Assembly: GCA_903847975.1 (NCBI GenBank)
Contig: CAINFC010000294.1
Coordinates: 811 to 64,810 of the forward strand
Direction of reading: 5' to 3'
DNA length: 64,000 nucleotides
DNA from: an uncultured Acidobacteriota bacterium
GTDB taxonomy: Bacteria > Acidobacteriota > UBA6911 > CAINFC01
Part shown: positions 1-29,396 of the stretch, one piece after another
Layout of the letters: the number at the start of each line of letters is the position of its first letter
Numbering within the stretch: the stretch's first letter is position 1
Program-made: the position numbers and the translations under genes
The notes under the pieces: model-generated
The model's database searches: none
Seen by the model: only the letters and a program-made list of their open reading frames with translations
Told to the model about the DNA's origin: nothing

Positions 1-809
1 CTCCCGTAGGTCTGATAGACAGAGGCGGCCAGCTCCGGCGAATGCAGCTCCGGGGTGTCATGATTGGCGTCGAGCTCGAAGATCAGCAGATGATCGATGC
101 GCCGGCCCAGGGACGACAGGTGCCGGACCTTTTCCTCCCAGGTCAGATGGTGGAAGGAAAGGGAGCAGAGAGCCACGTCCACGTGCCTTTCCAGGCTTCC
201 GGCGATTTCCTGAATACGGCAGGTCCGCGAGCGGACGGGGGCATGCGGCAGGATTTCCCCAACGGTTTTTTCCGCCAGACGGCTCATGGCCGGAGAGGGG
301 TCGATCTGCAGAATCTCTCCGATTTCTCTGACCTTTCCCGATTCCAGCAGTTTGGCCACCAGCGCCGCTCCCAGGGCCCCGTTGCCGCAGCCGACATCCA
401 TAAAACGCAGCGGCCGGGAAAAATCCGGCAGGCTGTCGGCAGCCTGGCGCAGGAAATGCTCGCGCGCGCTGCGGAACACGGGGACCCCGGCGAAATGAAC
501 GAAAGGCGCCGGATCCTCGAAGGGGGCCGCGGCCATGGCGAAGCGGCCTTTCTGCCGCTCCAGGAAGCTGGTGACGAAGGCGTTCATGAACAGGCCGTCG
601 CCTTCCTCCAGAGCTCCGGCGGCAAACCAGGAACGGGCCGGACCGGAGAGCCCGGCGTTGGCCAGGCGGGAGCCCACAAAAAAGCGGAACATGCCGGCCA
701 GGTTGGAGCGCACCGCGCGGTCATAGCGGCCGGGAGCGGCTCCTTCGGCCAGGACTTCCCCGGCCAGCCGTTCCCACTCGGCCTGTTCCGATGACGATAA
801 GAAAAGCAT
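1..809 (-). CDS. Class I SAM-dependent methyltransferase (3' end cut by window edge)
   Basis: Minus-strand frame is open from the ATG (complement of 807-809) to position 1. Translation MLFLSSSEQAEWERLAGEV... contains FMDVGCGNGALGAAL (SAM-binding motif I, GxGxG) around 360-405. It is absent from the ORF track because it has no in-window stop. The listed +ORF 42..794 is its antisense shadow. Confidence 0.55.
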   Translation of the reverse strand, partial: MLFLSSSEQAEWERLAGEVLAEGAAPGRYDRAVRSNLAGMFRFFVGSRLANAGLSGPARSWFAAGALEEGDGLFMNAFVTSFLERQKGRFAMAAAPFEDPAPFVHFAGVPVFRSAREHFLRQAADSLPDFSRPLRFMDVGCGNGALGAALVAKLLESGKVREIGEILQIDPSPAMSRLAEKTVGEILPHAPVRSRTCRIQEIAGSLERHVDVALCSLSFHHLTWEEKVRHLSSLGRRIDHLLIFELDANHDTPELHSPELAASVYQTYG

Positions 810-836: not shown

Positions 837-2123
837 TCAACCCGGCAGGTAGGGCAGCTTCCAGGGCTTGCGGTACTCGCGGGACACCATTTTCCGGGCG
901 ATCCGGTTTCCCCGCACCTGGCCGGCCCGCTCGTCCCACTCCACGCGTGCCGCGCTGCGGAAGGCCAGGTTGCCGAGGTGGGCTACGGCGGAAACGTGGT
1001 GGCCCACCGCCACGCTCTCCACCGGATCGCGCCGGCTGCGCATGCATTCCAGGAAATTGCCGGCATGCAGCACCCGCGAGCGGTCGTCGGCCTTCACCGC
1101 GTGCTTCTCCGCGGGGGCTCCCTTTTTGGTTCGCTCCGGGATGACTTCCCAGCCGCTCTGATCCAGGATCAGCGTGGCCTGCGTGCCGGTGAAGGCCACT
1201 CCGTGCTCCCGGCGATCCGGGCCGAGGTTGTTACCTACCTGGTGCTCGAAAATCAACCGGTAGGAGGGGAATTCGTATACCGTGACCTGGGAGTCGGGGG
1301 TTTCGGTATTGTCGTCGAGCACGTAGCGGCCCCCCGAGCTGATCACGGTCTTCGGCCATTCCGGGCCCATCCCCCAGAGAGCCAGGTTGATGAGGTGAAC
1401 GCCCCAGTCGGTCATCAGCCCGCCGGCATAATCCCAGAACCAGCGGAAGTTGAAGTGAAACCGGTTGGGGTTAAACGGCCGGCGGGGAGCCGGGCCCAGC
1501 CACAGGTCGTAGTCCACCCCGGAAGGAACCGGTCCGTCCGGAGGCTTGCCGCAGGGCTGCAGCCAGTCCAGGTAGGCCCAGACGCGGACCTGGCGGACTT
1601 TACCCAGTTTTCCCGAACGAACGAATTCGATGGCCTCGCGATAGTGCTCCCCGCTCCTCCATTGCGTGCCCATCTGCACCACGCGCCCGTGGCGCCGGGC
1701 GGCTTCCACCATGGCCTGCCCTTCGGCAATGGTGGCGGCCAGCGGCTTTTCGCAGTAGACATCCTTGCCGGCCTGGCAGGCCAGTACGGTGGGCAGGGCG
1801 TGCCAGTGGTCCGGGGTGCAGACCAGGCAGGCATCGATCTCCTTGTTTTCGACCACCCGACGAAAATCCTTCTCCGTCTGCGGAGCCCTGCCCTGCGCCT
1901 TTTCCAGCCGCGCCCGGGCTTTGGCGATGCGCTCGTCGTCGACGTCGCAGATCTGCGCGATTTCCACGCCTGGATGGGCCAGAAACGCATGGGTATCGCC
2001 GACCGAGATGCCGCCGCAGCCGATCAGGCCGATGCGGATGCGGTCGTTGGCCCCGGGGGCGCGTCGCGCGGCGGCCAGAACGGCGCCCGCGGACAGAAAG
2101 GTTCTTCGGGTTAGCGGATTCAT
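837..2123 (-). CDS. Gfo/Idh/MocA family NAD(P)-dependent oxidoreductase with twin-arginine (Tat) signal
   Basis: 428 aa. N-terminal RRTFLSAGAVLAA (Tat signal). Rossmann IGLIGCGGIS. EKPLA motif typical of the Gfo/Idh/MocA family. The +ORF 978..2114 is its antisense. Confidence 0.85.
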   Translation of the reverse strand: MNPLTRRTFLSAGAVLAAARRAPGANDRIRIGLIGCGGISVGDTHAFLAHPGVEIAQICDVDDERIAKARARLEKAQGRAPQTEKDFRRVVENKEIDACLVCTPDHWHALPTVLACQAGKDVYCEKPLAATIAEGQAMVEAARRHGRVVQMGTQWRSGEHYREAIEFVRSGKLGKVRQVRVWAYLDWLQPCGKPPDGPVPSGVDYDLWLGPAPRRPFNPNRFHFNFRWFWDYAGGLMTDWGVHLINLALWGMGPEWPKTVISSGGRYVLDDNTETPDSQVTVYEFPSYRLIFEHQVGNNLGPDRREHGVAFTGTQATLILDQSGWEVIPERTKKGAPAEKHAVKADDRSRVLHAGNFLECMRSRRDPVESVAVGHHVSAVAHLGNLAFRSAARVEWDERAGQVRGNRIARKMVSREYRKPWKLPYLPG

Positions 2124-2364: not shown

Positions 2365-4128
2365 ATGAAGCCTTACGACCTGCTCCTGGTGCACGCGCAC
2401 CGCGATTCCTTCGCTGCCTTTTATGAAGACGTCTCCATCGGGACCAACCTTCTGGCGGGCACGCTTCGGGCCCGGGGATTCGAGGTCGGATATTTTCGAG
2501 GCTTTGCCGTGGAGGCCGCCGCCTGGATCCGAGCCGAATGGCGCGGTCGGGGCGCCCGGGCCATCGGGTTCTATTGCGATTACGAAAACGAAACCCTGAT
2601 TGCCGAGATGGGCCGGGGCCTTCGGGCGGTTTCGGACCTCCCCCTGATCGTCGGCGGGCCGCAGGCCTGCTTCCTGCAGGAGGATTTTTTCCGGCGTTCA
2701 GGGTGCTGGGCGGCGGTGCGGGGGGAAGCGGAGGATACGGTGGCCGAGCTGCTGGCGCTGCTGCGCAACGGAAGCGGCAGTCGGGAAGGCATTGCCGGAA
2801 TCAGTTTTCCGGGGCCGGATGGCCGGCTGATCCGGAATCCGGATCGGGAGCCGATTGCCGACCTGAACGCTCTTCCCTGGCCGGACTTTACCATGGAAAA
2901 GAATCATGCCCATTGGGTCAGCCTCCCGGTGCTCTCCGGCCGGGGCTGCCCCTTCCGCTGCGGATTTTGCTTTCAGGGAGCGGTTTCCACCCGGGTGCGC
3001 CTGCGCAGCGTCGCCGAGGTCATGCGCGAGATCCGCCACCACTTTGCGGTTCATGCCAACCTGCGATCCGTATATTTTGTGGACGACACCTTTACCCTCC
3101 ACCCCGGGCGGGTCGGGGAGTTTTGCGAAGAGCTGGCGCGGCTGCGCCAGGAGCGCGATTTCGTCTGGTTTTGCGAGGGGCACGTGCAGACCCTGCACCG
3201 CTGGCCGGAAATGGCAGAGCAGATGGCCGCCGCCGGACTGGTCAAAATCTTCATCGGAGTGGAATCCGGTTCGGATCGGGTGCTGCAGCTCTACCGCAAG
3301 CAGACCACGGCGGCCATGATCGAAGAAACGGTCGGGCAGTTGGTCCGGGCTGGCATCCCGCAGGTGGTCGGAAACATCATCCTCGGCGGGCCGCAGGAAA
3401 GTCCGGACACGGTTCGGGAAAGCAGGGAGCTGGTATTCCGCTTGCTGGACGCCCATCCCGGCCGGTTCGACTGCCTCGGATTTTTCCTGGTTCCTTTTCC
3501 CGGCACTGCGGTGGCCGAGCAGCCCGACGCGCTGGGGCTGCGCCTGCTGGATCACGGGCGCAAGGCGGTGGTGGACGACATTCCCTTCACCGAAACGGAA
3601 AGCCTGTCCTTTCCCGATCTGTTCCGAATCCGGCGGGAGTTCCATCGGCAGACGCTCACCCGAATGCGGGAGCTGTTTCTGGCCGGCCAAATCCCTCGTC
3701 CGGTCCTGGAGTCGATCTATCATCTTCATGGCCGCTACGGGATCGGCTCGCGCTGGATGCAGAATATTTTCCGGCTCTACCCGATGTCCCACCGCTACTA
3801 TTCGATGCTGGCCGGGAAAGCGATCCGCTCCCCGAAGGGGGTATCCTGCGTAAGGATTCGGCGCTGGCGCCCGCGCCGGCTCTTCGAGATCTGGAACGGA
3901 GTCCGTTTTACCAACGGCTACCCGGAGCTGGCCGGAATACCGCTTTCTCCGCTGGAATATGAACTGCTTCTGCCGTGTACCGGGAAGCTGACTCTGGACG
4001 AAATCCTGGAGAAGACCTTCCCGAAATTCCAGGAGCGTTTTCCGGACCGGGCCGCCTTCCGCCGCCTGGCGCGGCAGCTTCTTCTTAAAATGGAAGCCCG
4101 GTGCTGGATCGGCTTTCACGAGGCCTGA
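2365..4128 (+). CDS. B12-binding (class B) radical SAM enzyme, paralog 1, with C-terminal PqqD-like RRE motif
   Basis: CxxxCxxC cluster SGRGCPFRCGFCFQG. N-terminal Rossmann-type cobalamin-binding-like domain (LLLVHAHRD...GFYCDYENE...IVGGPQA). C-terminal LSPLEYELLLPCTGKLTLDEIL. ATG at 2365 was chosen by alignment with the paralog 2 N-terminus. The track ORF begins at GTG 2275. Confidence 0.85.
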   Translation: MKPYDLLLVHAHRDSFAAFYEDVSIGTNLLAGTLRARGFEVGYFRGFAVEAAAWIRAEWRGRGARAIGFYCDYENETLIAEMGRGLRAVSDLPLIVGGPQACFLQEDFFRRSGCWAAVRGEAEDTVAELLALLRNGSGSREGIAGISFPGPDGRLIRNPDREPIADLNALPWPDFTMEKNHAHWVSLPVLSGRGCPFRCGFCFQGAVSTRVRLRSVAEVMREIRHHFAVHANLRSVYFVDDTFTLHPGRVGEFCEELARLRQERDFVWFCEGHVQTLHRWPEMAEQMAAAGLVKIFIGVESGSDRVLQLYRKQTTAAMIEETVGQLVRAGIPQVVGNIILGGPQESPDTVRESRELVFRLLDAHPGRFDCLGFFLVPFPGTAVAEQPDALGLRLLDHGRKAVVDDIPFTETESLSFPDLFRIRREFHRQTLTRMRELFLAGQIPRPVLESIYHLHGRYGIGSRWMQNIFRLYPMSHRYYSMLAGKAIRSPKGVSCVRIRRWRPRRLFEIWNGVRFTNGYPELAGIPLSPLEYELLLPCTGKLTLDEILEKTFPKFQERFPDRAAFRRLARQLLLKMEARCWIGFHEA

Positions 4129-4129
4129 C

Positions 4130-5920
4130 ATGAATCCCACCGCAAACAGGAACACCCCCTCTCCGTACGACATTCTACTGATCCATGCCCATCGGGACTA
4201 CTATTTTGCCGCCGCGGACGGGATCGCCATTGGAACCCTGCTGCTGGCCTCGGTTTTACGGGATCGCGGACTGCGGGTTGGCTATTTCCGCGGCTTTGCC
4301 GGGGAAACCGCCGGGTGGCTGCGGGCCGAGCTGGAAGCGACCGGAGCGCGCTGCGTCGGCTTTTACTGTGACTACGAGAACGTGACCCTGGTGGAATCCC
4401 TGTCGCGGATGGTCAAATCCGGCGGGGAAATACCCGTGGTGGTGGGAGGCCCGCAGGCCTTTGCGCTGACCGAAGAGTTCTTCGAGCGGTCGCGCTGCGA
4501 TTTCGCCATCCGCGGGGAGGCGGAAAGGACCCTGCCGGAGCTTCTGGAGCACCTTCTGGAGGGAAAGGGCTGCCGGGAGGCCATCGACGGAATCAGCTAT
4601 CCGGACGGCGGCGGGCGGCTGGTCCGAAACCGGGACCGGGAGCTGATCGCGAATCTGGATGAGCTGCCCTTCGCGGACTTCCGCCTGGAACGGCGCTGGC
4701 CCTACCAGAAAAGCCTGCCGGTGCTCAGCGGGCGGGGGTGCCCCTACCGCTGCGCTTTCTGCTTCGAAGGCGGCAACACCCGGACCGTCCGATACCGCAG
4801 CGTGGGCCATGTGATGGCCGAAATCCGGGAGAATCTGAACCGCCGGCCCGACCTGCGCTCCGTCTTTTTTCTGGACGATACCTTCACTCTGAACCGGCAG
4901 CGGGTGGAAGAATTCTGCCGGGAACTTTCGCAGCTGCGCCGGCAGCACGATTTCGTATGGTTCTGCGAAGGGCACGTGCAGACCATCAACCGCCACCCCG
5001 ACCTGCTGCCGGTCATGGTGGCAGCCGGCCTGGTCAAAATGGCCATCGGCATCGAGTCGGGCTGCGACGAAACGCTCCGGCTGTACAACAAGCAATCCTC
5101 GGCCGCGGAAATCGAAGCCGCGGTGGGACGCCTGGTGCGGGCCGGCGTGCCGCAGGTCGAGGGGAATATCATCCTGGGCGGGCCGCAGGAAACAAAACAA
5201 ACCGCCCGGGCCAGCCTGAACCTGGTCCTGCGGCTGCTTCGGGCCCATCCCGGAAAATTTTTCAGCGGGGCCTATTTCCTGACTCCTTTTCCAGGAACAG
5301 CCATCACCTGCGCCCCGGAGCGGTTTGGCCTGAAATTTCTGCCCCCGAGAGTGAAAAGCGGGCTGGACGACATCCCGCAGGCTGAAACCGAAGCGTTGTC
5401 GATTGCCCGGCTTTTTGAAATCCGGCGATCCTTCGTCCGCCGCGTCCATTCCGCCATGAGCCGGATTCTGCACTCCGGGAAAGTGCCGCACGACTCGATG
5501 ACCTCCGCGTATCGGCTGGCGGCCCGCTACGGCATCGCTTCGCGCTGGCTGCAGAACCTGACCGGGCGGGTTCCGGTCACCGACCGCTATTTCTCTCTGC
5601 TGGCCCGCGGCGGGGCGGTTTCCTCCCGCGGCATCCGGCGGGGGCGGCTGATGAAAATGCACCCGATGCGCACGTTCGAGGTCTGGAATTCGATCCGGTT
5701 TTCGGAAGGCTATCCGGTGATCCAGGGTTTTGCCCTTTCTCCCCTGGAGTACGATCTGCTGTGCGCCAGCAGCGGAAAGCGGCCGCTCGGCGAGATCCTG
5801 CAATCCGCCTTCCGGAAATTCGGGAGCAGCAGCGGCGATTATTCCGAATTCGAAAAGCTTTCTATGGGACGTCTGAAGGCCTTCGAGAAAAAGCACTGGC
5901 TGGCCTATTCCGAATTCTGA
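4130..5920 (+). CDS. B12-binding (class B) radical SAM enzyme, paralog 2, with C-terminal RRE motif
   Basis: 596 aa. SGRGCPYRCAFCFEG. N-terminal ILLIHAHRD...GFYCDYENV...VVGGPQAF. C-terminal LSPLEYDLLCASSGKRPLGEIL. Starts 2 nt after the paralog 1 stop, suggesting operonic coupling. Confidence 0.9.
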   Translation: MNPTANRNTPSPYDILLIHAHRDYYFAAADGIAIGTLLLASVLRDRGLRVGYFRGFAGETAGWLRAELEATGARCVGFYCDYENVTLVESLSRMVKSGGEIPVVVGGPQAFALTEEFFERSRCDFAIRGEAERTLPELLEHLLEGKGCREAIDGISYPDGGGRLVRNRDRELIANLDELPFADFRLERRWPYQKSLPVLSGRGCPYRCAFCFEGGNTRTVRYRSVGHVMAEIRENLNRRPDLRSVFFLDDTFTLNRQRVEEFCRELSQLRRQHDFVWFCEGHVQTINRHPDLLPVMVAAGLVKMAIGIESGCDETLRLYNKQSSAAEIEAAVGRLVRAGVPQVEGNIILGGPQETKQTARASLNLVLRLLRAHPGKFFSGAYFLTPFPGTAITCAPERFGLKFLPPRVKSGLDDIPQAETEALSIARLFEIRRSFVRRVHSAMSRILHSGKVPHDSMTSAYRLAARYGIASRWLQNLTGRVPVTDRYFSLLARGGAVSSRGIRRGRLMKMHPMRTFEVWNSIRFSEGYPVIQGFALSPLEYDLLCASSGKRPLGEILQSAFRKFGSSSGDYSEFEKLSMGRLKAFEKKHWLAYSEF

Positions 5921-5925
5921 ACGCC

Positions 5926-7677
5926 ATGCCCCCGCCCGAGAAGCTCTATATCCTGCTGCTCTATATCCAGCGCCTGGCGCCGGGAAGAAATTTCGAGCAC
6001 CTGGACAGCCTGGGAATCATGACCCTGGCGGCCTTTCTGGAAGACAAGGGCTACAGGGCGCGCACCTACACCGGGATTACCACGGATGCGCTCCGCGTGG
6101 CGGAGGAGGAAATAGGGCGGGAAAACCTGGGGGCCATCGGGCTCACCTGCGATTACGACAATCAGAGCGCGGTTATCTCCTTTGCCCGGGCCATTAAGGG
6201 ACGACACAGGATTCCGATCATCGTTGGAGGTCCGCAGGCTTTTCACCTGCGCTCCGGATTCCTGCGGGAGGCCCGCTGCGATTTTCTGATCAAGGGGGAC
6301 GGGGAGCAGGCGCTTTTCGAGTTGCTGGAGTGCCTCGGCGAAGGTCGGGATCCATCCGCATCGATTGCCGGCCTGACCTGTTTCGATCGGGATGGGGTCG
6401 AGAGGGAAAATCCGCCGAGGCCCCCCGGGCGAAACCTGGATGGGCGGCCTTTTCCCCGAACCCGCTACCGGCTGCGGCCGGGGAAGCGACGGGCGCTCTC
6501 GGTCATTGGCAGCCGGGGCTGTCCCTACCGCTGCTCGTTTTGTTTCGAGGGCGGAAACACCAAGCGGTTCCGCCCGCGCAGCGTGGGCGACGTGATGGCC
6601 GAGATCCGTCTGGGCCTGGAGGAGAACCCGGAGGCCCGGTACCTGATGTTCCAGGACGATACCTTTACCCAGCAACCAGACCGCACTCTGGCCTTCGCCC
6701 GGGAGCTGGCCGCACTGCGCCGGACGCGCGACTTCGTCTGGTTTTGCGAGGCGCATCCCGGCTTCCTGGTGCGTCATCCCGAAGTGCTGCCGGAAATGAT
6801 CGGCGCCGGCTTGCAGCGCATGCAGATCGGGTTCGAATCGGGGTGCCGGGGCACCCTGGATCAGTATCGGAAGGGAATCAGCCCGGAGCAGCTTCGGGAG
6901 GCGGTGCGGCTGTGCTGGGATGCGGGGCTGCCTCAGCTGGCGGGCAATTTCATCATCGGCGGGCCGGGGGAAGAGGAGCGAACCCTCACGACCACCCGTG
7001 ATTTTATCCTGGAGATCCTGAACGGCTTCCCCGGAATGCTGGACCTGTCCACCACCTTTATTAATCCGCTTCCGAATACCGAAATTACCCGGCAGCCGGA
7101 AAAATTCGGGATGATAATTACGGATCCGGAGATGTGCACCTCGCTGGAAGACTACCCGGTGAACGAAACGCTATCGCTGGACCGCGTGGCCATATGCCGG
7201 GCGAGGCGAAACATGGTGGAGGCGATATCCGCGACCATGAAGCGGCAGTATGCGGAAGGACTCATTCCTGCAGGCCGCATGAAAAGGCACTTCGAACTGG
7301 CTCTGCGATACGGAGTATCGAGCAGCTGGTTCAATTATGTTTTTTCGCGGGATGAAGTCTGCATGAGCTACCACACCCTTCTGCTCTTCACTTCCGCCCG
7401 GGGCATCGATGAAGCCAGGCCGGAGGAACTGCAAAGTGCCTTTCCGCTGCGCGTCGCCGACCCGGAAGGGATCGGACCCGGCAGGGGATCGCGCCTCGGG
7501 GCGCTTCTCTCCGCAGACGACCGAAGGATTTTAGGCGCTTGCGATGGTAAAACCCGCCTGGACGCCCTGGCGGCGCTCTTTTCGGGCAGGAGCGGCGCCA
7601 GCGCAGTGCCGCCGGATCCCTTCCTGAGCCGAATCGACGATCTGTCAAGGCGTCGCTGGCTGGTTTTTTTTCACTGA
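5926..7677 (+). CDS. B12-binding (class B) radical SAM enzyme, paralog 3
   Basis: GSRGCPYRCSFCFEG. N-terminal B12-like domain (GLTCDYDNQ...IVGGPQAF). ATG 5926 lies 6 nt after the paralog 2 stop. The track ORF start 5761 overlaps paralog 2 and is unlikely. The C-terminal ILGACDGKTRLDALAALF is a degenerate RRE-like motif. Confidence 0.85.
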   Translation: MPPPEKLYILLLYIQRLAPGRNFEHLDSLGIMTLAAFLEDKGYRARTYTGITTDALRVAEEEIGRENLGAIGLTCDYDNQSAVISFARAIKGRHRIPIIVGGPQAFHLRSGFLREARCDFLIKGDGEQALFELLECLGEGRDPSASIAGLTCFDRDGVERENPPRPPGRNLDGRPFPRTRYRLRPGKRRALSVIGSRGCPYRCSFCFEGGNTKRFRPRSVGDVMAEIRLGLEENPEARYLMFQDDTFTQQPDRTLAFARELAALRRTRDFVWFCEAHPGFLVRHPEVLPEMIGAGLQRMQIGFESGCRGTLDQYRKGISPEQLREAVRLCWDAGLPQLAGNFIIGGPGEEERTLTTTRDFILEILNGFPGMLDLSTTFINPLPNTEITRQPEKFGMIITDPEMCTSLEDYPVNETLSLDRVAICRARRNMVEAISATMKRQYAEGLIPAGRMKRHFELALRYGVSSSWFNYVFSRDEVCMSYHTLLLFTSARGIDEARPEELQSAFPLRVADPEGIGPGRGSRLGALLSADDRRILGACDGKTRLDALAALFSGRSGASAVPPDPFLSRIDDLSRRRWLVFFH

Positions 7678-7720
7678 TTCGGGTTTTGCACCGGAAAGCC
7701 CGGGAACGGAAAAAAATTCT

Positions 7721-7999
7721 TTAGCTGGCAGTCTGAACGCCGACGAAGACGTAGTCCACGCCGACAATGGACAGCCCGCCGGCGACCTTGTCGAGCTCCT
7801 CGTCGCTCATGGCTTTCTTGGGACCGGCGGCCAGGCTTTCCTGGGCGGCCTGACGGAATTCCGGGATGGAAACCTCGAATCCCTGCCTTTGGGCGATGCT
7901 GAGGAAATCCTCTTCCGACTTGGCCTTTTTCAGCTGGTTCTGAAGGTCGATGTCCGACTGGAGCTTGGCGACCAGGGCTTTGGCACTTTCTGCTGACAT
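7721..7999 (-). CDS. RiPP precursor peptide with Nif11-type leader, Gly-Gly cleavage motif and 17-aa core
   Basis: 92 aa: MSAESAKALVAKLQSDIDLQNQLKKAKSEEDFLSIAQRQGFEVSIPEF...AMSDEELDKVAGG|LSIVGVDYVFVGVQTAS. The N-terminus matches the Nif11 domain pattern (L..kl..d..Lq..l..a.s.ee...iA...GF). It ends with the ELxxVAGG double-glycine motif. SD GGGAGG lies 8 nt before the ATG at 7999. Confidence 0.8.
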   Translation of the reverse strand: MSAESAKALVAKLQSDIDLQNQLKKAKSEEDFLSIAQRQGFEVSIPEFRQAAQESLAAGPKKAMSDEELDKVAGGLSIVGVDYVFVGVQTAS

Positions 8000-8050
8000 G
8001 TTAAAAACCTCCCACGAAAATTAACATTGAAAGAAAGGAAAGAGGTAAAC

Positions 8051-8079
8051 ATTATAGGGGAAAAGGCGGTTCTTTGCAA
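8051..8079 (-). promoter_or_regulatory. Near-consensus sigma70-like promoter for the precursor peptide gene (TTGCAA-N17-TATAAT)
   Basis: On the minus strand, -35 TTGCAA is at 8079-8074, followed by a 17-nt spacer and -10 TATAAT at 8056-8051. This places the promoter about 50 nt upstream of the precursor ATG at 7999. Confidence 0.45.
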
Positions 8080-8187
8080 CCGGTGGCCCGCTTTTTTTTG
8101 TTCTGCCAGGCGCAATCCGTCGGCTTTCGGGCTTTCGCGAGAACTCTCCTCATTGGGACGGCAGAACCGCACCCCGTCCACGACTTC

Positions 8188-8273
8188 TTTCGCTATCGCT
8201 ATCGCTATCGAAAAGATCCCTTCGCGGGGTATGGCGACGGGTTTTTTGTTTCGATCACGATAGCGATAGCGAA
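8188..8273. repeat. Large inverted repeat: 26-nt arms containing (CGCTAT)3 hexamer repeats, 34-nt spacer
   Basis: Left arm tttcgctatcgctatcgctatcgaaa (8188-8213). Right arm tttcgatcacgatagcgatagcgaaa (8248-8273). The arms are reverse complements with 2 mismatches. The repeat lies between the 3' end of rSAM paralog 4 and the precursor promoter. Confidence 0.7.
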
Positions 8274-8315
8274 ACAAGGAACCCCATTGAGGGTTCCGGA
8301 CTTTTTGCGGCGCCA

Positions 8316-10079
8316 TCAGTATTCGCTGAAGGTCACCAGGTATGCGGCATCGAATTTCCGCAATACCTCCATGGCTGCGCGCTCCAGGTCCTCCTGAGGA
8401 AAGCGCCCCTTCAGGTCGGCAACCATGTCATCCAATCGCTGCTTGCCGGAGCTTTGCAGGAGGATTTCCCATTCCAGGGGCGAAAAAGGTTTCCCGTCCA
8501 GGTGGGGAACCTCGCCAATAAAAACCAGGTTCTTGCGGAGTTCCGTGGTCCGCAGAGGGTGAAACGCGCCGATTTTACCGGGGGGAATGTCCGCGAGCCG
8601 GACCGCCTCCCCGCGGGAAACCAGGCGGTAGTATTCCTCCAGGGCGGGATTCTCCGCGTACACCAGCGCTTTCCAGAGACTGGTCAAACCGTAGGAATAG
8701 TGCAGCCGGTAGCTGCTCAGAATTCTCTCATGGGGCACGCGTCCGCCTTGCAGGGCTTCCGACATGACCGTCCGGATATGGGCGGCAAGCCGGAGCCGCC
8801 GGGTCAGCACTTCTTCCGCGGTCTGCCCTTCGGGGACCACCAGCGGAAAATCGTCGACCGAGCTGCTTCCCTCGGGATCGAGGATTCTCAGGCCGAACCG
8901 CTGCGGGTTGGAGGTCACTTCCGTACCGGGATAGGGCCGGAGGAATCCGGTGCTGATATCCAGTGCGCCCGGGGCCATCTCCAGCAGCTGCCGGGTGCGC
9001 TGCAGCAGATTTTCAAACCTTTCCGGAGTCTCCAGCGGGCCGCCGACAATCAGGTTCCCGGCCACCTGCGGTATCCCGGCCTGCATGGCCTGGCGGACCA
9101 CGAATTCGATTTCCTCCACGGTGCCTTTTTTATTGTAAAGGTCCAGGACGTCCTGGTCGAGGCTCTCGATGCCGATCTGCAGCCGCGCCAGCCCTGCTTC
9201 GGCCAGCTCGGCGAGCATACCCGGGCGGCGGGCCAGCGGCTGGACGTGTCCTTCGCAGAACCAGACGAAATCGTGCTCCCGGTGCAGCCGGGCGATTTCC
9301 CGGCAGAAGGCGGTTACCCGCGCCGGGTCGGCGGTGAAGGTATCATCGGAGACATACAGGTAGCGCAGCCGGGGATTGCGGATGAGATTTTCCCGGATTT
9401 CGCGGATCACCTGGCCGATGTCCCGGTTGCGGACCTTCCGGCCGTGAGGGTCCTTGTAGCAGAAGGCGCAGGAGAAGGGGCACCCTCTTCCCGTGGAAAC
9501 GGTTCTCCCATAGGACGCCCCGGGAGTCAGGGAAAGGTGGTAGGCGGGAAAGGGAAGGGCATCCAGATCCTGCGGCGGAACGGCGTCTGCATTGCGGATG
9601 ACCTTGCCTCCGGAAAGGTAGGAAATGCCGGGAATTTCCGCAAGCGCCGGTTTTCCCCGGATCAGAAAGCCAACCAGGGCGGGCAGGATTTCTTCCGCCT
9701 CTCCGCGCACCGCGAAGGAGCAGCCGCACGTCCGGAAGAACTCCTCTCCCAGGGCGATGGCCTGCGGGCCGCCCACAATGGTTTTCCGCCGGTACTTGCG
9801 ACGCACCAGGCGGCACAGCTCCTCAACCGCAGTCCGGTTTTCAAAATCGCAGGAAAATCCGACGGCAATCAGACGCAGTTCGGCACAGAGCTTTTCCAGG
9901 ACGGCCGGAAACTCATGAGCCGGGCCATGGAAAACGCGGGCCTGGTAGCCCTGCTTTTCCAGGACGGCGGCCAGCAGAAAAAGACCCAGGAAGTCCGACG
10001 GCGGAGAGGGCGGGCCGGGGGCGGCCCGCCGCGTGTCGGCCAGGAGGATCGCCGGTGTTCGCGGATCAGAGGGGTGCAT
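8316..10079 (-). CDS. B12-binding (class B) radical SAM enzyme, paralog 4, with C-terminal RRE motif
   Basis: TGRGCPFSCAFCYKD. N-terminal B12-like domain (GFSCDFENR...IVGGPQAI). C-terminal FSPLEWEILLQSSGKQRLDDMV. ATG 10079 was chosen. The track ORF starts at TTG 10103. The start overlaps the paralog 5 stop by about 14 nt. Confidence 0.85.
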   Translation of the reverse strand: MHPSDPRTPAILLADTRRAAPGPPSPPSDFLGLFLLAAVLEKQGYQARVFHGPAHEFPAVLEKLCAELRLIAVGFSCDFENRTAVEELCRLVRRKYRRKTIVGGPQAIALGEEFFRTCGCSFAVRGEAEEILPALVGFLIRGKPALAEIPGISYLSGGKVIRNADAVPPQDLDALPFPAYHLSLTPGASYGRTVSTGRGCPFSCAFCYKDPHGRKVRNRDIGQVIREIRENLIRNPRLRYLYVSDDTFTADPARVTAFCREIARLHREHDFVWFCEGHVQPLARRPGMLAELAEAGLARLQIGIESLDQDVLDLYNKKGTVEEIEFVVRQAMQAGIPQVAGNLIVGGPLETPERFENLLQRTRQLLEMAPGALDISTGFLRPYPGTEVTSNPQRFGLRILDPEGSSSVDDFPLVVPEGQTAEEVLTRRLRLAAHIRTVMSEALQGGRVPHERILSSYRLHYSYGLTSLWKALVYAENPALEEYYRLVSRGEAVRLADIPPGKIGAFHPLRTTELRKNLVFIGEVPHLDGKPFSPLEWEILLQSSGKQRLDDMVADLKGRFPQEDLERAAMEVLRKFDAAYLVTFSEY

Positions 10080-11829
10080 AGGCCAGCCAGTATTTTTCCT
10101 CAAAGAGTCTCATTTTTTTCATACAGGTTCTGTCGAATTCCCGGCGCCTGCGGTACAGGCCGGCAAATTTCGGGTAGACGGCGTCCAGGACCGCCTGCAG
10201 GGTCAGCTTCCCGGTGGAGTGCAGCAGCAGGTCGAATTCCAGCGGGGAGAGCACGTAACGGCCGATAGCCGGATAGCCTTCCGAAAAATCGACATCGTGC
10301 CAGAGCTCCAGAATACGCTGCGGTCGCCATCCCGGGAGCTCGCCGCGGGGGATTTCGCGGGAGCGCCGGACGGCTCTCCTGGCAATCAGCGAATAATAGG
10401 GACTAAGAAAGGGAACCCGGTCGTAAACGACCCTTCTCCAGATGAAACTCTGGCGCTCGACCCGTTCCCGGAAAGCGTAGGCGATACGCTCGTGGGGTAC
10501 CTTCCCTTCACGAAACAGCTTCCACATGACCTCCACCATGGAATCGACCAGGTATTTCTGCCCCTGGGCAATCGCCTCGCGGTCCAGCCCGGTGCTTTCC
10601 GTCAGCGGGAAATCGGAAATAGCCGTTCCTCCGGAGGGGTCGAGGACTTTCAGCCCGAATTTTTCCGGCGTCCGGGTAATTTCCGTGCCGGGATAGGGCA
10701 TGACCGGGCTTGGCGAAATTTCAATGATTCCGGGGGCGGTCCGTATCAGCTTTTCGACGAAGCGGCAGTTCTGTCCGGTGATTTTCCCGGACTCAAAGGG
10801 TGCGCCGGTGAGAATGCAGGCAAAGATCTGCCGGACTCCGGCCTTTACGGCATTCCGGACGACCCGCAGCACCATGGCCGGGGTGATCTTTTTCCGGCAG
10901 GCGTCGAGCACCTTCCGGGAAGCCGATTCGATGCCGATCTGCAGCCGGACCAGGCCGGACGGCACCATCAGGTCCAGCATTTCCGGCCAGCGGTCCAGCC
11001 TTTCGACGTGCGCCTCGCAGTACCAGCGGAAGTTTTTCCGGGTGCGAAGCCTGGCCAGCCCGGCGCAGATTTCTCTCACCCGCTCCAGGGAAAGAGTGAA
11101 GGTATCGTCGGTAAAGGCGATGTAATCGACGACAGGATATCGTCCCAGAACGGTTTCTATTTCCTGGAGGATGCTCGGGACGCTTCGGAACCTGGCTCTG
11201 TATTTGGCGGCTCCCTCCTGGCAGAAGGCGCAGCGGTACGGGCAGCCGCGCCCGGTCATGATGTTGTATCGGGGCTGCAGGATATAGTCCGGGCACAGGT
11301 GATAGGCGGGCAGCGGGATCAGGTCGAGATCTTCGACGATTTCCCCCGGGCCGGTGGAAATCAGGCTCCCGTCCTCCCCAAGGTAGAGGAGCCCGGGAAT
11401 CTTCCTCCAGTCCGGGTCCGGCGACGGCAGGCACTGCAGCAGGCGGAGCAGGGGCACTTCCCCTTCTCCGACCACGGCCGCCAGGCAGCCGGTTCGCTTC
11501 AGGAACCGGGCGTCAAATCCGACGGCCTGCGGTCCGCCGAGCAGGACCGGCACAGCGAACTGACCGGCGATCCATGGGCCAAGCTCCTGAACTTCCACCT
11601 GATTTTCGAAATCGCAGTATAAGCCGACCGCCAGCAGATGCGACCCCTCGGCTTTTTCACGGATCAGGGCCATGGCCCGGATCGGCTCGCAGCTGTAGAT
11701 TTCCGGAGCGTAGCCATGCGTTTCCAGCCAGGAGCCGAGGCTCAGCAGGCCGCCCGGGATTTCCCAGGCAATCTCCATGCTGGAGGGGATGATCCGATGA
11801 ACGTTGAGCAGCAGTACGGTCTTGGTCAA
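10066..11829 (-). CDS. B12-binding (class B) radical SAM enzyme, paralog 5, with C-terminal RRE motif
   Basis: TGRGCPYRCAFCQEG. N-terminal VLLLNVHRI...GLYCDFENQ...LLGGPQAV. C-terminal LSPLEFDLLLHSTGKLTLQAVL. TTG start 11829 is preceded by AGAGGA 7 nt upstream. Confidence 0.85.
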   Translation of the reverse strand: MTKTVLLLNVHRIIPSSMEIAWEIPGGLLSLGSWLETHGYAPEIYSCEPIRAMALIREKAEGSHLLAVGLYCDFENQVEVQELGPWIAGQFAVPVLLGGPQAVGFDARFLKRTGCLAAVVGEGEVPLLRLLQCLPSPDPDWRKIPGLLYLGEDGSLISTGPGEIVEDLDLIPLPAYHLCPDYILQPRYNIMTGRGCPYRCAFCQEGAAKYRARFRSVPSILQEIETVLGRYPVVDYIAFTDDTFTLSLERVREICAGLARLRTRKNFRWYCEAHVERLDRWPEMLDLMVPSGLVRLQIGIESASRKVLDACRKKITPAMVLRVVRNAVKAGVRQIFACILTGAPFESGKITGQNCRFVEKLIRTAPGIIEISPSPVMPYPGTEITRTPEKFGLKVLDPSGGTAISDFPLTESTGLDREAIAQGQKYLVDSMVEVMWKLFREGKVPHERIAYAFRERVERQSFIWRRVVYDRVPFLSPYYSLIARRAVRRSREIPRGELPGWRPQRILELWHDVDFSEGYPAIGRYVLSPLEFDLLLHSTGKLTLQAVLDAVYPKFAGLYRRRREFDRTCMKKMRLFEEKYWLAYAPL

Positions 11830-11856: not shown

Positions 11857-13623
11857 TCAATATCGTGTGAAGATCAGAAATTGCCGGTTCTCCAGCTCCT
11901 GCAGGATGCGGATCATTTCGACCTCGCTCTGCGGCCATTGCTCCTTCCATCTCCCCGAGCCCTCGTGCCGCTCGAGCAGCTCCCCGATGGAGAACTTTCC
12001 GGTACAGTAAAGGATCACCTGGTACTCCGCGGGGGTGATCGGCATGCCGAGCAGCTCCGGCGGCTCTTTCCGGAAATCGACCGTATTTCCCAGGTAGGGA
12101 ATACGCACCGGCCGCCAGAGGCGGAGCTCCTCCCGCGGAATTTCGCACAGGCTGCGGGCCGAGCTGCTGCCGAGCAATGTGAATCTCCGGTCGAAGTTTA
12201 CGTGCTGGGAGTACACCAGGCTGTGCCAGGTGCTCGATATCCCGTATCGGCGGTAGAGCTCGTAGTGCCGGCGGATCCGCGCATGGGGAACGCCTCCCTG
12301 AAAGGTCAGGTCCCACATCAGCTGCCGGATTTGCCGGGAAAACCGCCGCCGGCCTCCGGCGATATGCTCCCGGCTGAGGCCGGTAGTGGCCGCCACAGGG
12401 TAATCTCCGGTGGAGGTCACCGAAGCGCTGTCGACCGGCCGGATTCCGAACCGTTCGGGGGATTGCGTCATGGTGGTTCCCGGGAAAGGGGTGTACAGTG
12501 TGTGGGTAATGTCAAGCATGCCGGGAGCCCGCCGGAGCAGGCGGGTCACGAATTCTTCGGTTTCGGCCAGGGTCTCCGGGGTTTCCATGGCCCCGCCGAA
12601 AATGATATTCCCGCACAGCTGGGGCAGGTCCTGTTTGACGCAGAGGTCCACGACCTGTTCGATCTGGGTCAGATCGGTACTCTTGCCGTACAATTGCACG
12701 ACCTTTGCGGAGCCGGTTTCGATGCCAATCTGCATCCGCACCAGCCCGGCCTCGATCATTTCCGGCAGCATGTCCGGCCATTTTACGATCAGGCTGGGGT
12801 GCGCATCGCAGAACCATACGAAATCGTGCCGGCCCCGCAGCTCCTTCATGGCCCCGCAGAACTCGGTGACCCTGCGGGGATTCAGGGTGAAGGTGTCGTC
12901 GGCAAACCATACGTAGCGGATGCCCGGGGAATCCCGAAAGCCCTGCTCGATTTCCTCCCGCACGCTCTGTACGCTGCGCAGCCGCACGTTGCGGGTGTTT
13001 CCTCCTTCGAAGCAGAAGGCGCAGCGGAAAGGGCATCCCCGGCCGGTAAGCACCGCCAGGTTGGTTTTTTTGCCGGTCAGAGAAAATTCGGCCCGGGGAA
13101 CCGGCAGGGCATCCAGGTCTTCGATGGCCGGCCGGTCCGGAGTTCGGATCAGCTGCCCGGTGGCATCCAGAAAGGTAATGCCGGCGATTTCCTGCAGCGA
13201 TCCTTTGCCCTTCACAAAAAAATCCAGCAGCTCCGGAAGAGTCTGCTCTCCCTCTCCGCGCCCTACCGCATCGCAGAGAGAAGACCGGAGAAACCCGGCT
13301 TCCAGAAAATACCCCTGCGGCCCGCCGGCAAAGACGGGTACGGAGTACTTTCCTTTGGCGGTGCGGGCAAAGGATTCGACCACATTCTGGTTTTCATAGT
13401 CGCAGTAAAGGGCGATGGCCTGGACCCCTTCTTTCCGGTACATATTTTCGAGAAGGGGCAGGGCGTCGGTAATCGATCCGGTGAAAACCCGCGGGCAGTA
13501 GCCATGCCGGTCCAGGGCCGCCGCCAGGGTCATCAGCCCGATCGGCTCTACGTAGCGGTAGAACTGCTTGAAAGAGGCTCTCTGCAGGAAAAGCAATAAA
13601 ACTTTGGCAATACCCCTGGTCAT
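11857..13623 (-). CDS. B12-binding (class B) radical SAM enzyme, paralog 6, with C-terminal RRE-like motif
   Basis: TGRGCPFRCAFCFEG. N-terminal B12-like domain (ALYCDYENQ...FAGGPQGY). C-terminal ITPAEYQVILYCTGKFSIGELL. ATG 13623 (MTRGIAK...) has AAGGAAA immediately upstream. The track ORF extends to 13800, but that extension lacks homology to the paralog N-termini. An alternative ATG is at 13647. Confidence 0.85.
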   Translation of the reverse strand: MTRGIAKVLLLFLQRASFKQFYRYVEPIGLMTLAAALDRHGYCPRVFTGSITDALPLLENMYRKEGVQAIALYCDYENQNVVESFARTAKGKYSVPVFAGGPQGYFLEAGFLRSSLCDAVGRGEGEQTLPELLDFFVKGKGSLQEIAGITFLDATGQLIRTPDRPAIEDLDALPVPRAEFSLTGKKTNLAVLTGRGCPFRCAFCFEGGNTRNVRLRSVQSVREEIEQGFRDSPGIRYVWFADDTFTLNPRRVTEFCGAMKELRGRHDFVWFCDAHPSLIVKWPDMLPEMIEAGLVRMQIGIETGSAKVVQLYGKSTDLTQIEQVVDLCVKQDLPQLCGNIIFGGAMETPETLAETEEFVTRLLRRAPGMLDITHTLYTPFPGTTMTQSPERFGIRPVDSASVTSTGDYPVAATTGLSREHIAGGRRRFSRQIRQLMWDLTFQGGVPHARIRRHYELYRRYGISSTWHSLVYSQHVNFDRRFTLLGSSSARSLCEIPREELRLWRPVRIPYLGNTVDFRKEPPELLGMPITPAEYQVILYCTGKFSIGELLERHEGSGRWKEQWPQSEVEMIRILQELENRQFLIFTRY

Positions 13624-13645
13624 TTTCCTTGTTACCGGGATACCC

Positions 13646-13651
13646 ATTATA
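13646..13651 (-). promoter_or_regulatory. Candidate -10 box (TATAAT) upstream of rSAM paralog 6
   Basis: Minus strand reads ...cgtccagTATAATgggtatcccggtaacaAGGAAAATG. A perfect TATAAT lies 23-28 nt upstream of ATG 13623, within an AT-rich 100-bp gap after the hybrid HK gene. No good -35 was seen. Confidence 0.3.
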
Positions 13652-13726: not shown

Positions 13727-15931
13727 TCAGGGCTGGTTCTTCTGCACCGTCCGCCGGTCGAGCAGCTGACGGATTTTTTGCAGAAGCACCTCGCGCTCAT
13801 AGGGCTTCTGGATCAGGTGCAGCTGTTCGTGGATCACGAAATCGGTATGGATGCCGCTCTGGCTGTAGCCGCTGGTAAACAGGATGGGGACCTCCGAGCC
13901 GGTGGCCCGGATCTGGTCCATGACCTCTTTCCCTCCCAGGTTAGGCATCATGACATCCAGCACCACCAGGTCGATCCGGTTCCGGTTCCGCTCGTAGATC
14001 TGGAGGGCTTCCAGGCCATCCGCAGCGGTCAGGACGGTGTAGCCGGCTTTGCGGAGAAAGGCCGCCTGGATGTGCAGAAGGGCGGTATCGTCCTCTGAAA
14101 TCAGGATGGTCTCTTTCCCGCCGGTCAGGGCCGGTTGGGAAGGGTTCGGCGATTTTTCGTTGGCGACCTCGACGATGGGCAGGTAAACCTGGAACACGCT
14201 GCCCTCTCCCGGCTTGCTGGAGGCGTGGATCAGGCCGTGATGCTGCTTGACGATTCCATACACGCTCGACAGGCCGAGTCCTGTCCCTTTTCCCAGGCCC
14301 TTGGTGGTAAAGAAGGGCTCAAAGACCTGGGCCAGCGTCGAGGCATCCATGCCGGCCCCGGTGTCCGCTACGCTCAAAAGAGCGTAGGCTCCCTCTTTGG
14401 CCCAGGCATTCAGGCTGCAAAACGACCGATCCAGAATTTCGGGACGGATTTCGATGGTGATCCGGCCGCCTTTGGGCATGGCATCCCGGGCGTTGATGCA
14501 GAGGTTGAGGAGAACCTGCTCCATCTGTCCCTTGTCGGCAAAAACATTGCCGGTCTTATGTCCGCTGACAACGCAGAGCTGGATGTTCTCTTCGATCAGC
14601 CGCCGGAGCATTTTCAGGACGCCCTGCACCAGGTCGTTCAGGTCCAGGTATACCGGGTGGATCACCTGGCGCCGGCTGAAGGCCAGGAGCTGACGGGTCA
14701 GGTCGGCAGCCCGCCGCCCGGCCGAGCTGATTTCCTCACATTCGCTCCAGGCCAGGGTGCCGGGCATAAGTTCCGACTGAAGGCTGTCGGCATTCATCAG
14801 GATCACCTGCAGCAGATTGTTGAAGTCGTGGGCCACTCCTCCGGCCAGATGTCCCACTGCTTCCATTTTCTGGGACTGGCGCAGCTGCTCCTCCAGGGTC
14901 TTCTGCTCCTCCTCCCTCTGCTTCCGTTCGGTGATGTCCTGGACAATACCGACGGATCGGACCGGTTCTCCCTGGGTATCGAATTCATTCCGGCCGATCG
15001 CCTTGACCCACTTGATCCGGCCGTCCTTCATGCGCAGCCGGTATTCGATTTCGAGAGGACGGTATTGGGAAACGGACAAGGTATAGGCTCGATGGACCAT
15101 ATCGCGGTCTTCCGGATGAATGCTTTCCAGGAAAGCTTCGTAGGTCGCTTCGAACCGCTTCGGGTCGATTTCGAAGAGCTCGAAAATTTCCGGCGGCCAT
15201 TGCATGCGGTTATCCTTCCGATCGAGGCTCCACATGCTCATTTTGGCAATCCGCTGCGCTTCCCGGAGATTGGCTTCGCTCTCCCGCAGCGACCGCTCCG
15301 CGTGCCGGCGGGCCTTCAGCTCCGCCTCCAGATCCTCCTTGGTCTTCACCAGGTCGGCGGTCCGCTCGCGTACCCGGACTTCCAGCCCGGCCTGCGCCCG
15401 GCGGAGCTCCTCCTCCTGTCTTTTTGCGGCGCTCATATCGGTAAGGATCAGGCAGACGGCCGTAATCTTATCTTCCATTTCCAGGGAAATGGCGGAAAGA
15501 AGCACCGGGACGGTCCCCTCCGGATCGACGGCCAGATTGAGCTCCAGGGCCTTTCCCGTGGCCAGATCCTCCCGGATCAGACGGTCAAAGGCCGGCCGGT
15601 CGGGGAGGGAAATCAGCGGGAGGAAGGAATTTCCGATGATCTGTTCCATCGGCTTGCGCAGCAAGGCCGCCAGGCTCCGGTTGCAGTACATGGTGCCGCC
15701 GTCCCGGGTCAGGATGGCCGCCCCCTCGTTCATGTTTTCCACCAGCAGGCGGTAGGTGCGCTCCGCATGCTGCAAGGTGAAGACGCGCTGACCCCCGGGG
15801 CCCGAAACGATCAGGGCGTCCACTTCGCCGCAGCGGATGGCATGCAGCGTATGCTCGGCCTCCTCCAGTCGGGCGCGAAGTTCCCGGATTTCCCGGTGAA
15901 GGCCTTGACTCGAAGATGGATTCCTGGTCAT
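13727..15931 (-). CDS. Hybrid sensor histidine kinase (PAS domains, HisKA, HATPase_c, C-terminal receiver)
   Basis: 734 aa. H-box HLAGGVAHDFNNLLQVI. ATPase G-boxes (DTGAGMD, GLGKGTGLGLS). C-terminal REC ILISEDDTALL...LVVLDVMMP. Coiled-coil and PAS segments are N-terminal. The start overlaps the kaiB stop by 4 nt (ATGA). Confidence 0.85.
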   Translation of the reverse strand: MTRNPSSSQGLHREIRELRARLEEAEHTLHAIRCGEVDALIVSGPGGQRVFTLQHAERTYRLLVENMNEGAAILTRDGGTMYCNRSLAALLRKPMEQIIGNSFLPLISLPDRPAFDRLIREDLATGKALELNLAVDPEGTVPVLLSAISLEMEDKITAVCLILTDMSAAKRQEEELRRAQAGLEVRVRERTADLVKTKEDLEAELKARRHAERSLRESEANLREAQRIAKMSMWSLDRKDNRMQWPPEIFELFEIDPKRFEATYEAFLESIHPEDRDMVHRAYTLSVSQYRPLEIEYRLRMKDGRIKWVKAIGRNEFDTQGEPVRSVGIVQDITERKQREEEQKTLEEQLRQSQKMEAVGHLAGGVAHDFNNLLQVILMNADSLQSELMPGTLAWSECEEISSAGRRAADLTRQLLAFSRRQVIHPVYLDLNDLVQGVLKMLRRLIEENIQLCVVSGHKTGNVFADKGQMEQVLLNLCINARDAMPKGGRITIEIRPEILDRSFCSLNAWAKEGAYALLSVADTGAGMDASTLAQVFEPFFTTKGLGKGTGLGLSSVYGIVKQHHGLIHASSKPGEGSVFQVYLPIVEVANEKSPNPSQPALTGGKETILISEDDTALLHIQAAFLRKAGYTVLTAADGLEALQIYERNRNRIDLVVLDVMMPNLGGKEVMDQIRATGSEVPILFTSGYSQSGIHTDFVIHEQLHLIQKPYEREVLLQKIRQLLDRRTVQKNQP

Positions 15932-16257: not shown

Positions 16258-16261
16258 GAGG

Positions 16262-16615: not shown

Positions 16616-16744
16616 GAAGTTCCTCTGCTTTCTTGAGAACCGTCATTGGGAAAAATGTTTGGATTCCCTTCGAGGGATGCGGAGGATTCCCCACCGGGAG
16701 AGAAGCGAATGCACTTCCCCGACCCCGGGAGATGCCTGCGCGCT

Positions 16745-27315: not shown

Positions 27316-27339
27316 AGCTTCGTTCCTCCTGATCACGAT

Positions 27340-29358: not shown

Positions 29359-29396
29359 AACGAGATTCCTTATATGGGACAAGCCGGCAAAAAGTA

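Follow-up and report, generated by a model that had tools for sequence, protein, structure and literature searches.

The DNA analysed here, called the window below, is a stretch of 64,000 nucleotides (contig CAINFC010000294.1, positions 811 to 64,810) from an uncultured Acidobacteriota bacterium. A gene for a 92-residue peptide sits in it between two convergent three-gene operons, R1-R3 on the plus strand and R6-R5-R4 on the minus strand. The six flanking genes encode paralogous radical S-adenosylmethionine (SAM) enzymes, and the peptide is the predicted precursor of a ribosomally made peptide that is modified after translation (RiPP). The locus is very probably a RiPP cluster, with this peptide as the substrate of the six enzymes. 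The genes and domains of the cluster are the following.

2365..4128, plus strand: R1, predicted B12-binding radical SAM enzyme of 587 residues, 52% identical to R2; the R1/R2 orthogroup has a bootstrap value of 97%
4130..5920, plus strand: R2, predicted B12-binding radical SAM enzyme of 596 residues, in the R1/R2 orthogroup
5926..7677, plus strand: R3, predicted B12-binding radical SAM enzyme of 583 residues, convergent with the precursor gene across a 43-nt gap; orthogroup bootstrap 99%
7721..7999, minus strand: precursor peptide gene, 92 residues plus stop, recognised from its translation and from Nif11/TIGR03798 matches above cutoff
7724..7774, minus strand: core peptide LSIVGVDYVFVGVQTAS, residues 76-92, near-invariant across phyla with varying codons
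7775..7999, minus strand: leader, residues 1-75, with the C-terminal end SDEELDKVAGG, delimited by the TIGR03798 alignment
8316..10079, minus strand: R4, predicted B12-binding radical SAM enzyme of 587 residues, directly upstream of the precursor (PF04055 84 bits, PF02310 44 bits); orthogroup bootstrap 100%
8319..8597, minus strand: C-terminal domain of R4 (last 93 residues), of the type of a RiPP recognition element (RRE), with an equivalent region in all six paralogues
10066..11829, minus strand: R5, same radical SAM family, 587 residues (PF04055 81.8 bits, PF02310 14.4 bits), overlapping R4 by 14 nt; orthogroup bootstrap 100%
11857..13647, minus strand: R6, predicted B12-binding radical SAM enzyme of 596 residues, first gene of the minus-strand operon; the 'R6 proper' clade has a bootstrap value of 99%

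The translated precursor consists of a 75-residue leader, MSAESAKALVAKLQSDIDLQNQLKKAKSEEDFLSIAQRQGFEVSIPEFRQAAQESLAAGPKKAMSDEELDKVAGG, followed by the 17-residue core. It begins with MSAES, and the leader closes with the stretch MSDEELDKVAGG directly before the core. The translation is identical to that given in a preliminary description of this DNA, which was made from the letters alone and proposed a Nif11-like leader of about 75 residues with a double-glycine site at its end. Both proposals hold. The Pfam model Nif11 (PF07862) matches the precursor with 50.4 bits (cutoff 23.8, E = 2.7e-13), and the NCBIfam model TIGR03798 (leader_Nif11) matches it with 61.4 bits (cutoff 32.3, E = 7e-17). 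The latter alignment pairs precursor residues 1-75 with model positions 1-68 of 68, which is the whole model. The Gly-Gly cleavage motif (within ELDKVAGG) closes the leader homology, SDEELDKVAGG being followed by LSIV and the rest of a 17-residue tail. In the Nif11-derived precursor family (N11P), the motif consensus is ELSDEELEAVAGG and the suffix has about 23 residues (PMC2887384). The end of the leader matches this consensus. By contrast, the model TIGR03793 of the NHLP leader family scores 13.1 bits against a cutoff of 50.9, and only over the last 20 residues. The precursor is therefore not of the NHLP type, and of the two leader models named in the preliminary description only Nif11 stands.

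The core is very hydrophobic. Its grand average of hydropathicity (GRAVY) is +1.32 in unmodified form, compared with -0.51 for the leader. It contains five Val, two Gly, two Ser, and one each of Leu, Ile, Asp, Tyr, Phe, Gln, Thr and Ala. The length of 17 residues and most of the residue counts reported before are correct, and the six Val are in fact five Val and one Ala. A six-frame scan of the whole 64 kb for [VIAL]AGG or L..x[VIALM][AS]GG with a tail of 4-60 residues found no credible second GG-type precursor. The list of ORFs down to 20 residues likewise has no further short precursor in 7600-8400, in agreement with the single precursor noted earlier. Judged from its sequence, the ORF is a genuine RiPP precursor with a Nif11-type leader. 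The preliminary description had tied this assignment to a significant leader score, and the Nif11 scores lie well above the curated cutoffs. It is further reinforced by the neighbouring maturases, whose position beside the gene is conserved and which have an RRE-type domain.

The six enzymes are 583-596 residues long and share 33-52% pairwise identity over their full length. The radical SAM domain PF04055 (71.5-84.1 bits, cutoff 29.5) and the motif CX3CX2C are present in all of them, and an N-terminal B12-binding domain (PF02310, 34.7-44.1 bits, cutoff 32.1) is recognised in five. Among the ORFs of at least 200 residues in the 64 kb, CX3CX2C occurs six times, always within R1-R6. As a result, no separate epimerase-type radical SAM enzyme is present in the window. 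The closest partial NCBIfam matches are ApyD, HpnJ, PhpK and BchE. For four enzymes (R1, R2, R5 and R6), ApyD is the named model with the highest score, at 57-124 bits against a cutoff of 750, and the match spans model positions ~96-391 of 645, which is the catalytic core only. The PoyB/C-type model TIGR03975 gives 37.5-83.5 bits against a cutoff of 281.85. Sequence matches of the enzymes to the PDB are weak (CysS, E = 1e-12).

Structural comparison places the enzymes more clearly. An AlphaFold2 model was made of R4 only, from a 63-sequence alignment, and has a predicted local distance difference test score (pLDDT) of 93.3 and a predicted template modelling score (pTM) of 0.91. A Foldseek search of the PDB with this model returned MgmA (E = 3e-22), CysS, TsrM, OxsB, AprD4 and TokK, all cobalamin-dependent radical SAM enzymes. 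The best match, MgmA, is the methyl-coenzyme M reductase glutamine C-methylase. By domain composition and predicted fold, R1-R6 are class-B radical SAM enzymes, for which cobalamin binding is predicted.

The C-terminal domain of R4 has the RRE fold in the predicted structure, a three-stranded sheet with a three-helix winged helix. Its structural matches are TigE (7.8), MadB (7.8), TbiB1 (7.5) and the RRE of PbtF (7.4), and further matches are MibB, MccB, TglI, NisB, PqqD (6.7 and 6.3) and LynD. The six paralogues of the window align across this RRE-type region, the fold being modelled for R4 alone. The alignment suggests that each of the six enzymes has its own predicted leader-docking domain. 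The PqqD profile PF05402 recognises none of the six at E<=0.1, and it recognises four of the 63 aligned family members (best E 7.9e-7).

The cluster is not confined to this genome. The identical precursor and the same neighbours are found on about 10 metagenome contigs, and 13 precursor homologues have 53-67% identity. The nearest named fragment comes from an Acidobacteriota metagenome-assembled genome (MAG), P0038, at 53%. These homologues and a scan of one genome per species yielded the same architecture in anaerobes of seven or more phyla, with loci in Wallbacteria, UBP16, Vulcanimicrobiota, Synergistota, Desulfobacterales and Bacillota besides the clade of the window. Hosts include Thermoclostridium and Acetobacterium, as well as the cultured Anoxynatronum sibiricum and Heliomicrobium undosum. 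All complete loci contain one precursor and five to seven B12-radical SAM modules. In the Bacillota and Synergistota loci (L021-L028; for example L028, 13808-17431), two complete modules are fused into proteins of 1196-1213 residues, which have two CX3CX2C motifs and a C-terminal half that falls in the R5 orthogroup. Wallbacteria, UBP16 and two MAG loci (L013 and L014) have a seventh enzyme of 880-900 residues, in which some 300 additional residues separate the catalytic core from the RRE-like C-terminal end. It is encoded at these positions.

L010, 10651-13320: seventh radical SAM protein
L013, 6966-9647: seventh radical SAM protein
L014, 11750-14449: seventh radical SAM protein
L015, 15806-18451: seventh radical SAM protein

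In a bootstrapped neighbour-joining tree, four orthogroups (R1/2, 97%; R3, 99%; R4, 100%; R5, 100%) span all phyla. The fifth enzyme position is occupied by one of three related sub-lineages, and R1 and R2 result from a lineage-specific duplication. Since the orthogroups span phyla and are kept side by side, the paralogues are ancient, which argues for non-redundant roles.

The part of the precursor that is best conserved is the core. Its consensus, L[ST][ILF]VG[VI]DY[AV]F[VT][GA]x[QEK]T, is near-invariant, whereas the leaders fall to about 43% identity. Core residues L1, S2, V4, G5, D7, Y8, F10 and T15 are invariant in 16 loci of different phyla. These positions use two to six codons each, and Ser is encoded by both TCN and AGY. 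Invariant residues with scrambled codons indicate that the peptide is translated and is under strong purifying selection.

A few precursors depart from the common pattern. In Heliomicrobium undosum (L051, 11809-12078), the leader ends in QGVG and not in the canonical ELxxxxGG, and the core is LTFVGIDYAFVGVKTSSG. A Peptidase_C1 gene lies near this locus, and there is no peptidase-containing ATP-binding cassette (ABC) transporter (PCAT) within +-10 kb. These features suggest that leader removal may differ in this organism. The MAG CAYTCW01 has two precursor copies on two contigs (L011, 3068-3352; L016, 1228-1512), and the copy in L016 has no radical SAM genes after it. The homologue P0014, on a 1225-nt Joint Genome Institute (JGI) contig, combines the same leader with an unrelated Cys-containing tail, LSTFSGECIDDFRIPICVVRT, which may be due to a frameshift, to an error of assembly or to divergence of the core.

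Related loci also point to a route of export. An ABC transporter pair, one member of which has a C39 peptidase, adjoins the cluster in the clade closest to that of the window (L008/L009) and in the Acetobacterium locus L022. The models TIGR03796 and TIGR03797 describe exporters specific to NHLP/N11P peptides. The L008 proteins score 907.8 bits with TIGR03796 (cutoff 853.3) and 715.3 bits with TIGR03797 (cutoff 709.4), and those of L022 score 905 and 712.8 bits, so that both pairs lie above the equivalog cutoffs. In the window, tblastn for the exporter matches a single gene, which lies at about 43.5 kb and encodes a generic DrrA-like ABC ATPase.

The alkylation of unactivated carbons, which class-B radical SAM enzymes carry out, ranks among the hardest reactions in biology. 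The following pathway is proposed. The 92-residue peptide would be made from its own promoter, and the six enzymes from the two flanking convergent operons. Each enzyme would dock on the 75-residue Nif11-type leader through its own C-terminal RRE. SAM would be cleaved at the [4Fe-4S] cluster bound by CX3CX2C, and the 5'-deoxyadenosyl radical would remove hydrogen from a core side chain, at a carbon that is not activated. Methyl-cobalamin would then donate a methyl group to that carbon. Different orthogroups would act at different positions, so that LSIVGVDYVFVGVQT would receive at least five C-methylations. Finally, the leader would be cut after Gly-Gly, and the very hydrophobic product of 15-17 residues would be exported by an NHLP/N11P-type peptidase ABC pair, presumably encoded elsewhere in this genome. 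The product may be membrane- or surface-active. The odds, in our judgement, are somewhat in favour of this pathway as a whole, with a single precursor, leader-docking enzymes, C-methylation, GG cleavage and export.

Taken by itself, the chemistry is probably C-methylation for the most part. This is favoured because the closest structures and profiles, MgmA and ApyD, are peptide or protein C-methylases. ApyD, a B12-radical SAM enzyme fused to an RRE, forms beta-methyl-tyrosine in aminopyruvatide (PMC11117315, PMC11002830). It is also favoured because the B12-radical SAM enzyme of the clavusporins adds up to eight beta-methyl groups to a similar core (PMC10849626). The preliminary description had already hinted at C-methylation, and the six flanking B12-radical SAM genes, a context it did not include, suit that hint. 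Several observations weigh against a methylating pathway, however. All of R1-R6 stay below every curated equivalog cutoff of NCBIfam (at best 124 against 750 bits, for ApyD), so the function of the enzymes cannot be transferred by homology. The PF02310 match of R5 is weak, at 14.4 bits; R5 aligns with its paralogues over the full length and has CX3CX2C. The number of modules (five, six or seven) does not follow the core sequence, and identical cores occur with five and with seven. The 64-kb window has no C39 peptidase or PCAT exporter; precursor genes of the NHLP/N11P type frequently lie far away from the genes for export (Haft et al. 2010, PMC2887384). Moreover, OxsB and AprD4, which are not methylases, are among the structural matches of R4. 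AprD4 has a B12 domain and does not use the cobalamin. By analogy, these two enzymes and the B12-radical SAM enzyme that forms a biaryl cross-link in biphenomycin-like peptides (PMC12257519) count against methylation as class-B precedents of other chemistry.

Such precedents support a different reading of the same RiPP cluster, in which some or all of the enzymes do not methylate. They could form C-C or C-O cross-links in Asp-Tyr-x-Phe, close rings, desaturate or rearrange, and the product would be constrained or macrocyclic instead of linear and poly-methylated. The invariant D7, Y8 and F10 of the core would fit the cross-linking of aromatic side chains seen in the biphenomycin-like RiPPs, and five deeply diverged orthogroups (33-40% identical) could allow different chemistries. 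The biphenomycin cross-link, however, requires prior ortho-hydroxylation by an iron-dependent oxidative enzyme of the multinuclear non-heme type (MNIO), and the conserved gene set contains no MNIO, P450 or other oxidase. The family alignment has no conserved SPASM-type auxiliary-cluster cysteine motifs, and the best structure and profile matches (MgmA, CysS, TsrM, TokK and ApyD) are C-methylases of peptides or small molecules. We regard non-methylating chemistry as possible, though rather unlikely.

Two further readings would change the class of the system itself. The preliminary description likened the core to those of the proteusins. The hydrophobic, beta-branched, Gly-containing core and the presence of B12-radical SAM enzymes, such as PoyB and PoyC for polytheonamide, do recall an NHLP precursor that is epimerised and C-methylated to a beta-helical channel peptide. 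The likeness is one of resemblance, and membership is largely refuted. TIGR03793 stays at 13.1 bits against 50.9, the TIGR03975 scores of the enzymes are far below cutoff, and neither the 64 kb nor the conserved gene set contains a PoyD-type radical SAM enzyme without B12. An N-methyltransferase and a dehydratase are not conserved either, and a core of 15-17 residues is too short for a membrane-spanning beta-helix, polytheonamides having 48 residues. A polytheonamide-like proteusin is thus highly improbable. Even less probable is that the ORF encodes a free-standing Nif11-domain protein, with enzymes that act on a lipid or hopanoid-like substrate and lie beside it by coincidence. HpnJ and the B12-radical SAM models of lipid (ladderane) biosynthesis are among the top partial matches, and Nif11-family proteins are not all precursors (PMC2887384). 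These matches reach only about 100 bits, however, against cutoffs of 360-578, and the precursor gene lies embedded among the enzyme genes at every locus, across seven phyla or more. The C-terminal domain, for which the R4 model gives a peptide-binding RRE fold, is common to the six enzymes. The most conserved part of the ORF is the tail after GG, not the Nif11 domain, and dedicated N11P exporters with a C39 peptidase adjoin the cluster in L008 and L022.

The region between R4 and the precursor gene is 317 nt long and contains three candidate regulatory elements.

8008..8013, minus strand: Shine-Dalgarno sequence GGGAGG, 8 nt before the precursor ATG, read from the sequence
8051..8079, minus strand: promoter-like TTGCAA-17-TATAAT (10/12), about 50 nt upstream of the ATG, by consensus match only
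8170..8316, minus strand: RNA hairpin of unusually high predicted stability (dG -70.6 kcal/mol, z -7.6), located between the stop of R4 and the predicted promoter

A consensus promoter scan found three sites, compared with 0.4 expected in shuffles. The match at 8051-8079 suggests that the precursor has a separate promoter. The arms of the hairpin are (CGCTAT)n repeats (8184-8213 and 8249-8278) that form a 30-nt inverted repeat with 90% complementarity, and a small GC hairpin lies at 8278-8297. The repeat is unique in the window. No Rfam family was found for the hairpin, the region 7600-8400 giving sub-threshold chance matches only, and the hairpin is absent at L008, whose R4 and precursor genes are 98 nt apart. 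It may act as a terminator or as a processing or stability element.

The surrounding genes are of various kinds. Beside R1, on its outer side, lies a GFO/IDH/MocA oxidoreductase gene (837-2123, minus strand), and beyond it a SAM-dependent methyltransferase gene (Methyltransf_12; 1-809, minus strand) is cut by the window start. A SAM methyltransferase is also found near the cluster in the related locus L006. Upstream of R6, the minus strand encodes KaiC (18481-16745), two KaiB proteins and a PAS hybrid histidine kinase/response regulator (15931-13727). This Kai/PAS group (13727-18481) ends 80 nt upstream of R6 and is found only in the same-species contigs L001-L003, not in other clades; the cluster might thus be subject to co-regulation of a clock-like or sensory kind. 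Further along, a group of sulfur-handling genes occupies 24797-29442 on the minus strand. It encodes two Sulf_transp proteins, one of them with a YeeE/YedE-type domain and three rhodanese domains in fusion, and a metallo-beta-lactamase-rhodanese protein. A 2531-residue protein with 14 FG-GAP repeats and BACON, fn3 and DUF11 domains is encoded at 30906-38501 on the plus strand. A PD40 Ser/Thr kinase and two outer-membrane proteins of the CarboxypepD_reg/OMP_b-brl_4 type are encoded in the window as well. Genes of this kind are common in Acidobacteriota.

To our knowledge, few peptide-modifying class-B radical SAM enzymes have been characterised, and we are aware of no system with more of them per core residue. 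The six diverged paralogues, which presumably share a single substrate of 17 residues, would provide a natural system for the study of site selectivity and of leader sharing among RRE enzymes. Because some hosts are cultured (Heliomicrobium undosum, Acetobacterium spp. and Anoxynatronum sibiricum), the product can be looked for directly. A core that is unchanged across phyla suggests a conserved function in anaerobes. If the core is truly frozen, it would point to a conserved physiological role, for example as a signal, as a cofactor-like molecule or as an agent active at membranes or surfaces, and not to a strain-level bacteriocin.

The nearest family by leader is N11P (TIGR03798), which includes the prochlorosins. 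The precursor shares with it a leader score above cutoff, the motif ELxxVAGG and a leader of 75 residues, the family average being about 70. The peptidase-ABC and ABC transporter pair of the family adjoins the cluster in related loci and is absent from the window. N11P precursors typically form large paralogous sets with hypervariable cores (Haft et al. 2010, PMC2887384), whereas here each locus has one precursor, and its near-invariant core is the opposite of the hypervariable Nif11 and NHLP cores. In addition, N11P cores are typically rich in Cys, Ser and Gly and are processed by LanM or a cyclodehydratase, in contrast to a hydrophobic core that lacks Cys and is flanked by B12-radical SAM maturases only. 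The proteusins polytheonamide and aeronamide have Val-rich hydrophobic cores that are C-methylated by the class-B enzymes PoyB and PoyC, together with a long leader and a GG site. Their NHLP leader, PoyD epimerase, 48-residue core and one or two iterative methylases set them apart from a system with a Nif11 leader, no epimerase found, a 17-residue core and five to seven separate enzymes below the TIGR03975 cutoff.

Other systems resemble the cluster in single respects. In the clavusporins (mpc, Streptomyces), a B12-radical SAM enzyme adds up to eight beta-C-methyl groups to KPSVGITITVPFR in a leader-dependent manner, and the product is a surfactant (PMC10849626). The short, beta-branched, hydrophobic core is common to both. 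The clavusporin system, however, is actinobacterial and relies on one iterative CX7CX2C enzyme, an obligatory DUF5825 partner, an S9 peptidase and a short leader. Here, six CX3CX2C enzymes with RRE-type domains and a Nif11 leader are found, and the hosts are anaerobes of many phyla. No DUF5825 gene was found among the called neighbours of the window cluster and the related loci. Bottromycin, with three paralogous class-B enzymes that each methylate a specific residue, offers the nearest 'one enzyme, one site' logic. It differs in having a follower peptide in place of a leader and numerous further tailoring enzymes, and in lacking a fused RRE. The ApyD system is similar in its B12-radical SAM enzyme, which has a fused RRE and whose target is an aromatic RiPP residue, but apy clusters additionally depend on an MNIO, a P450 and a methyltransferase, and the cluster described here has none of the three. 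TvgB, the cyclopropylglycine synthase, was considered as another B12-enzyme analogue and was dropped, since the papers describe a radical SAM-SPASM (RS-SPASM) enzyme.

A description of this RiPP family was not found in the full-text literature searched, also by core sequence, in which subscription journals are thinly covered. It is possible, though less likely than not, that the cluster is the first example of a RiPP class not yet described, defined by a frozen 15-residue core and five to seven leader-docking enzymes, in which one or more orthogroups may carry out new B12-radical SAM chemistry. In summary, the system is classed here as a B12-radical-SAM-tailored RiPP with a Nif11 leader, and it is not a proteusin, a clavusporin-type or an aminopyruvatide system. 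It is distinguished by the combination of five to seven dedicated enzymes bearing RRE-type domains with a single short core that is frozen across phyla.

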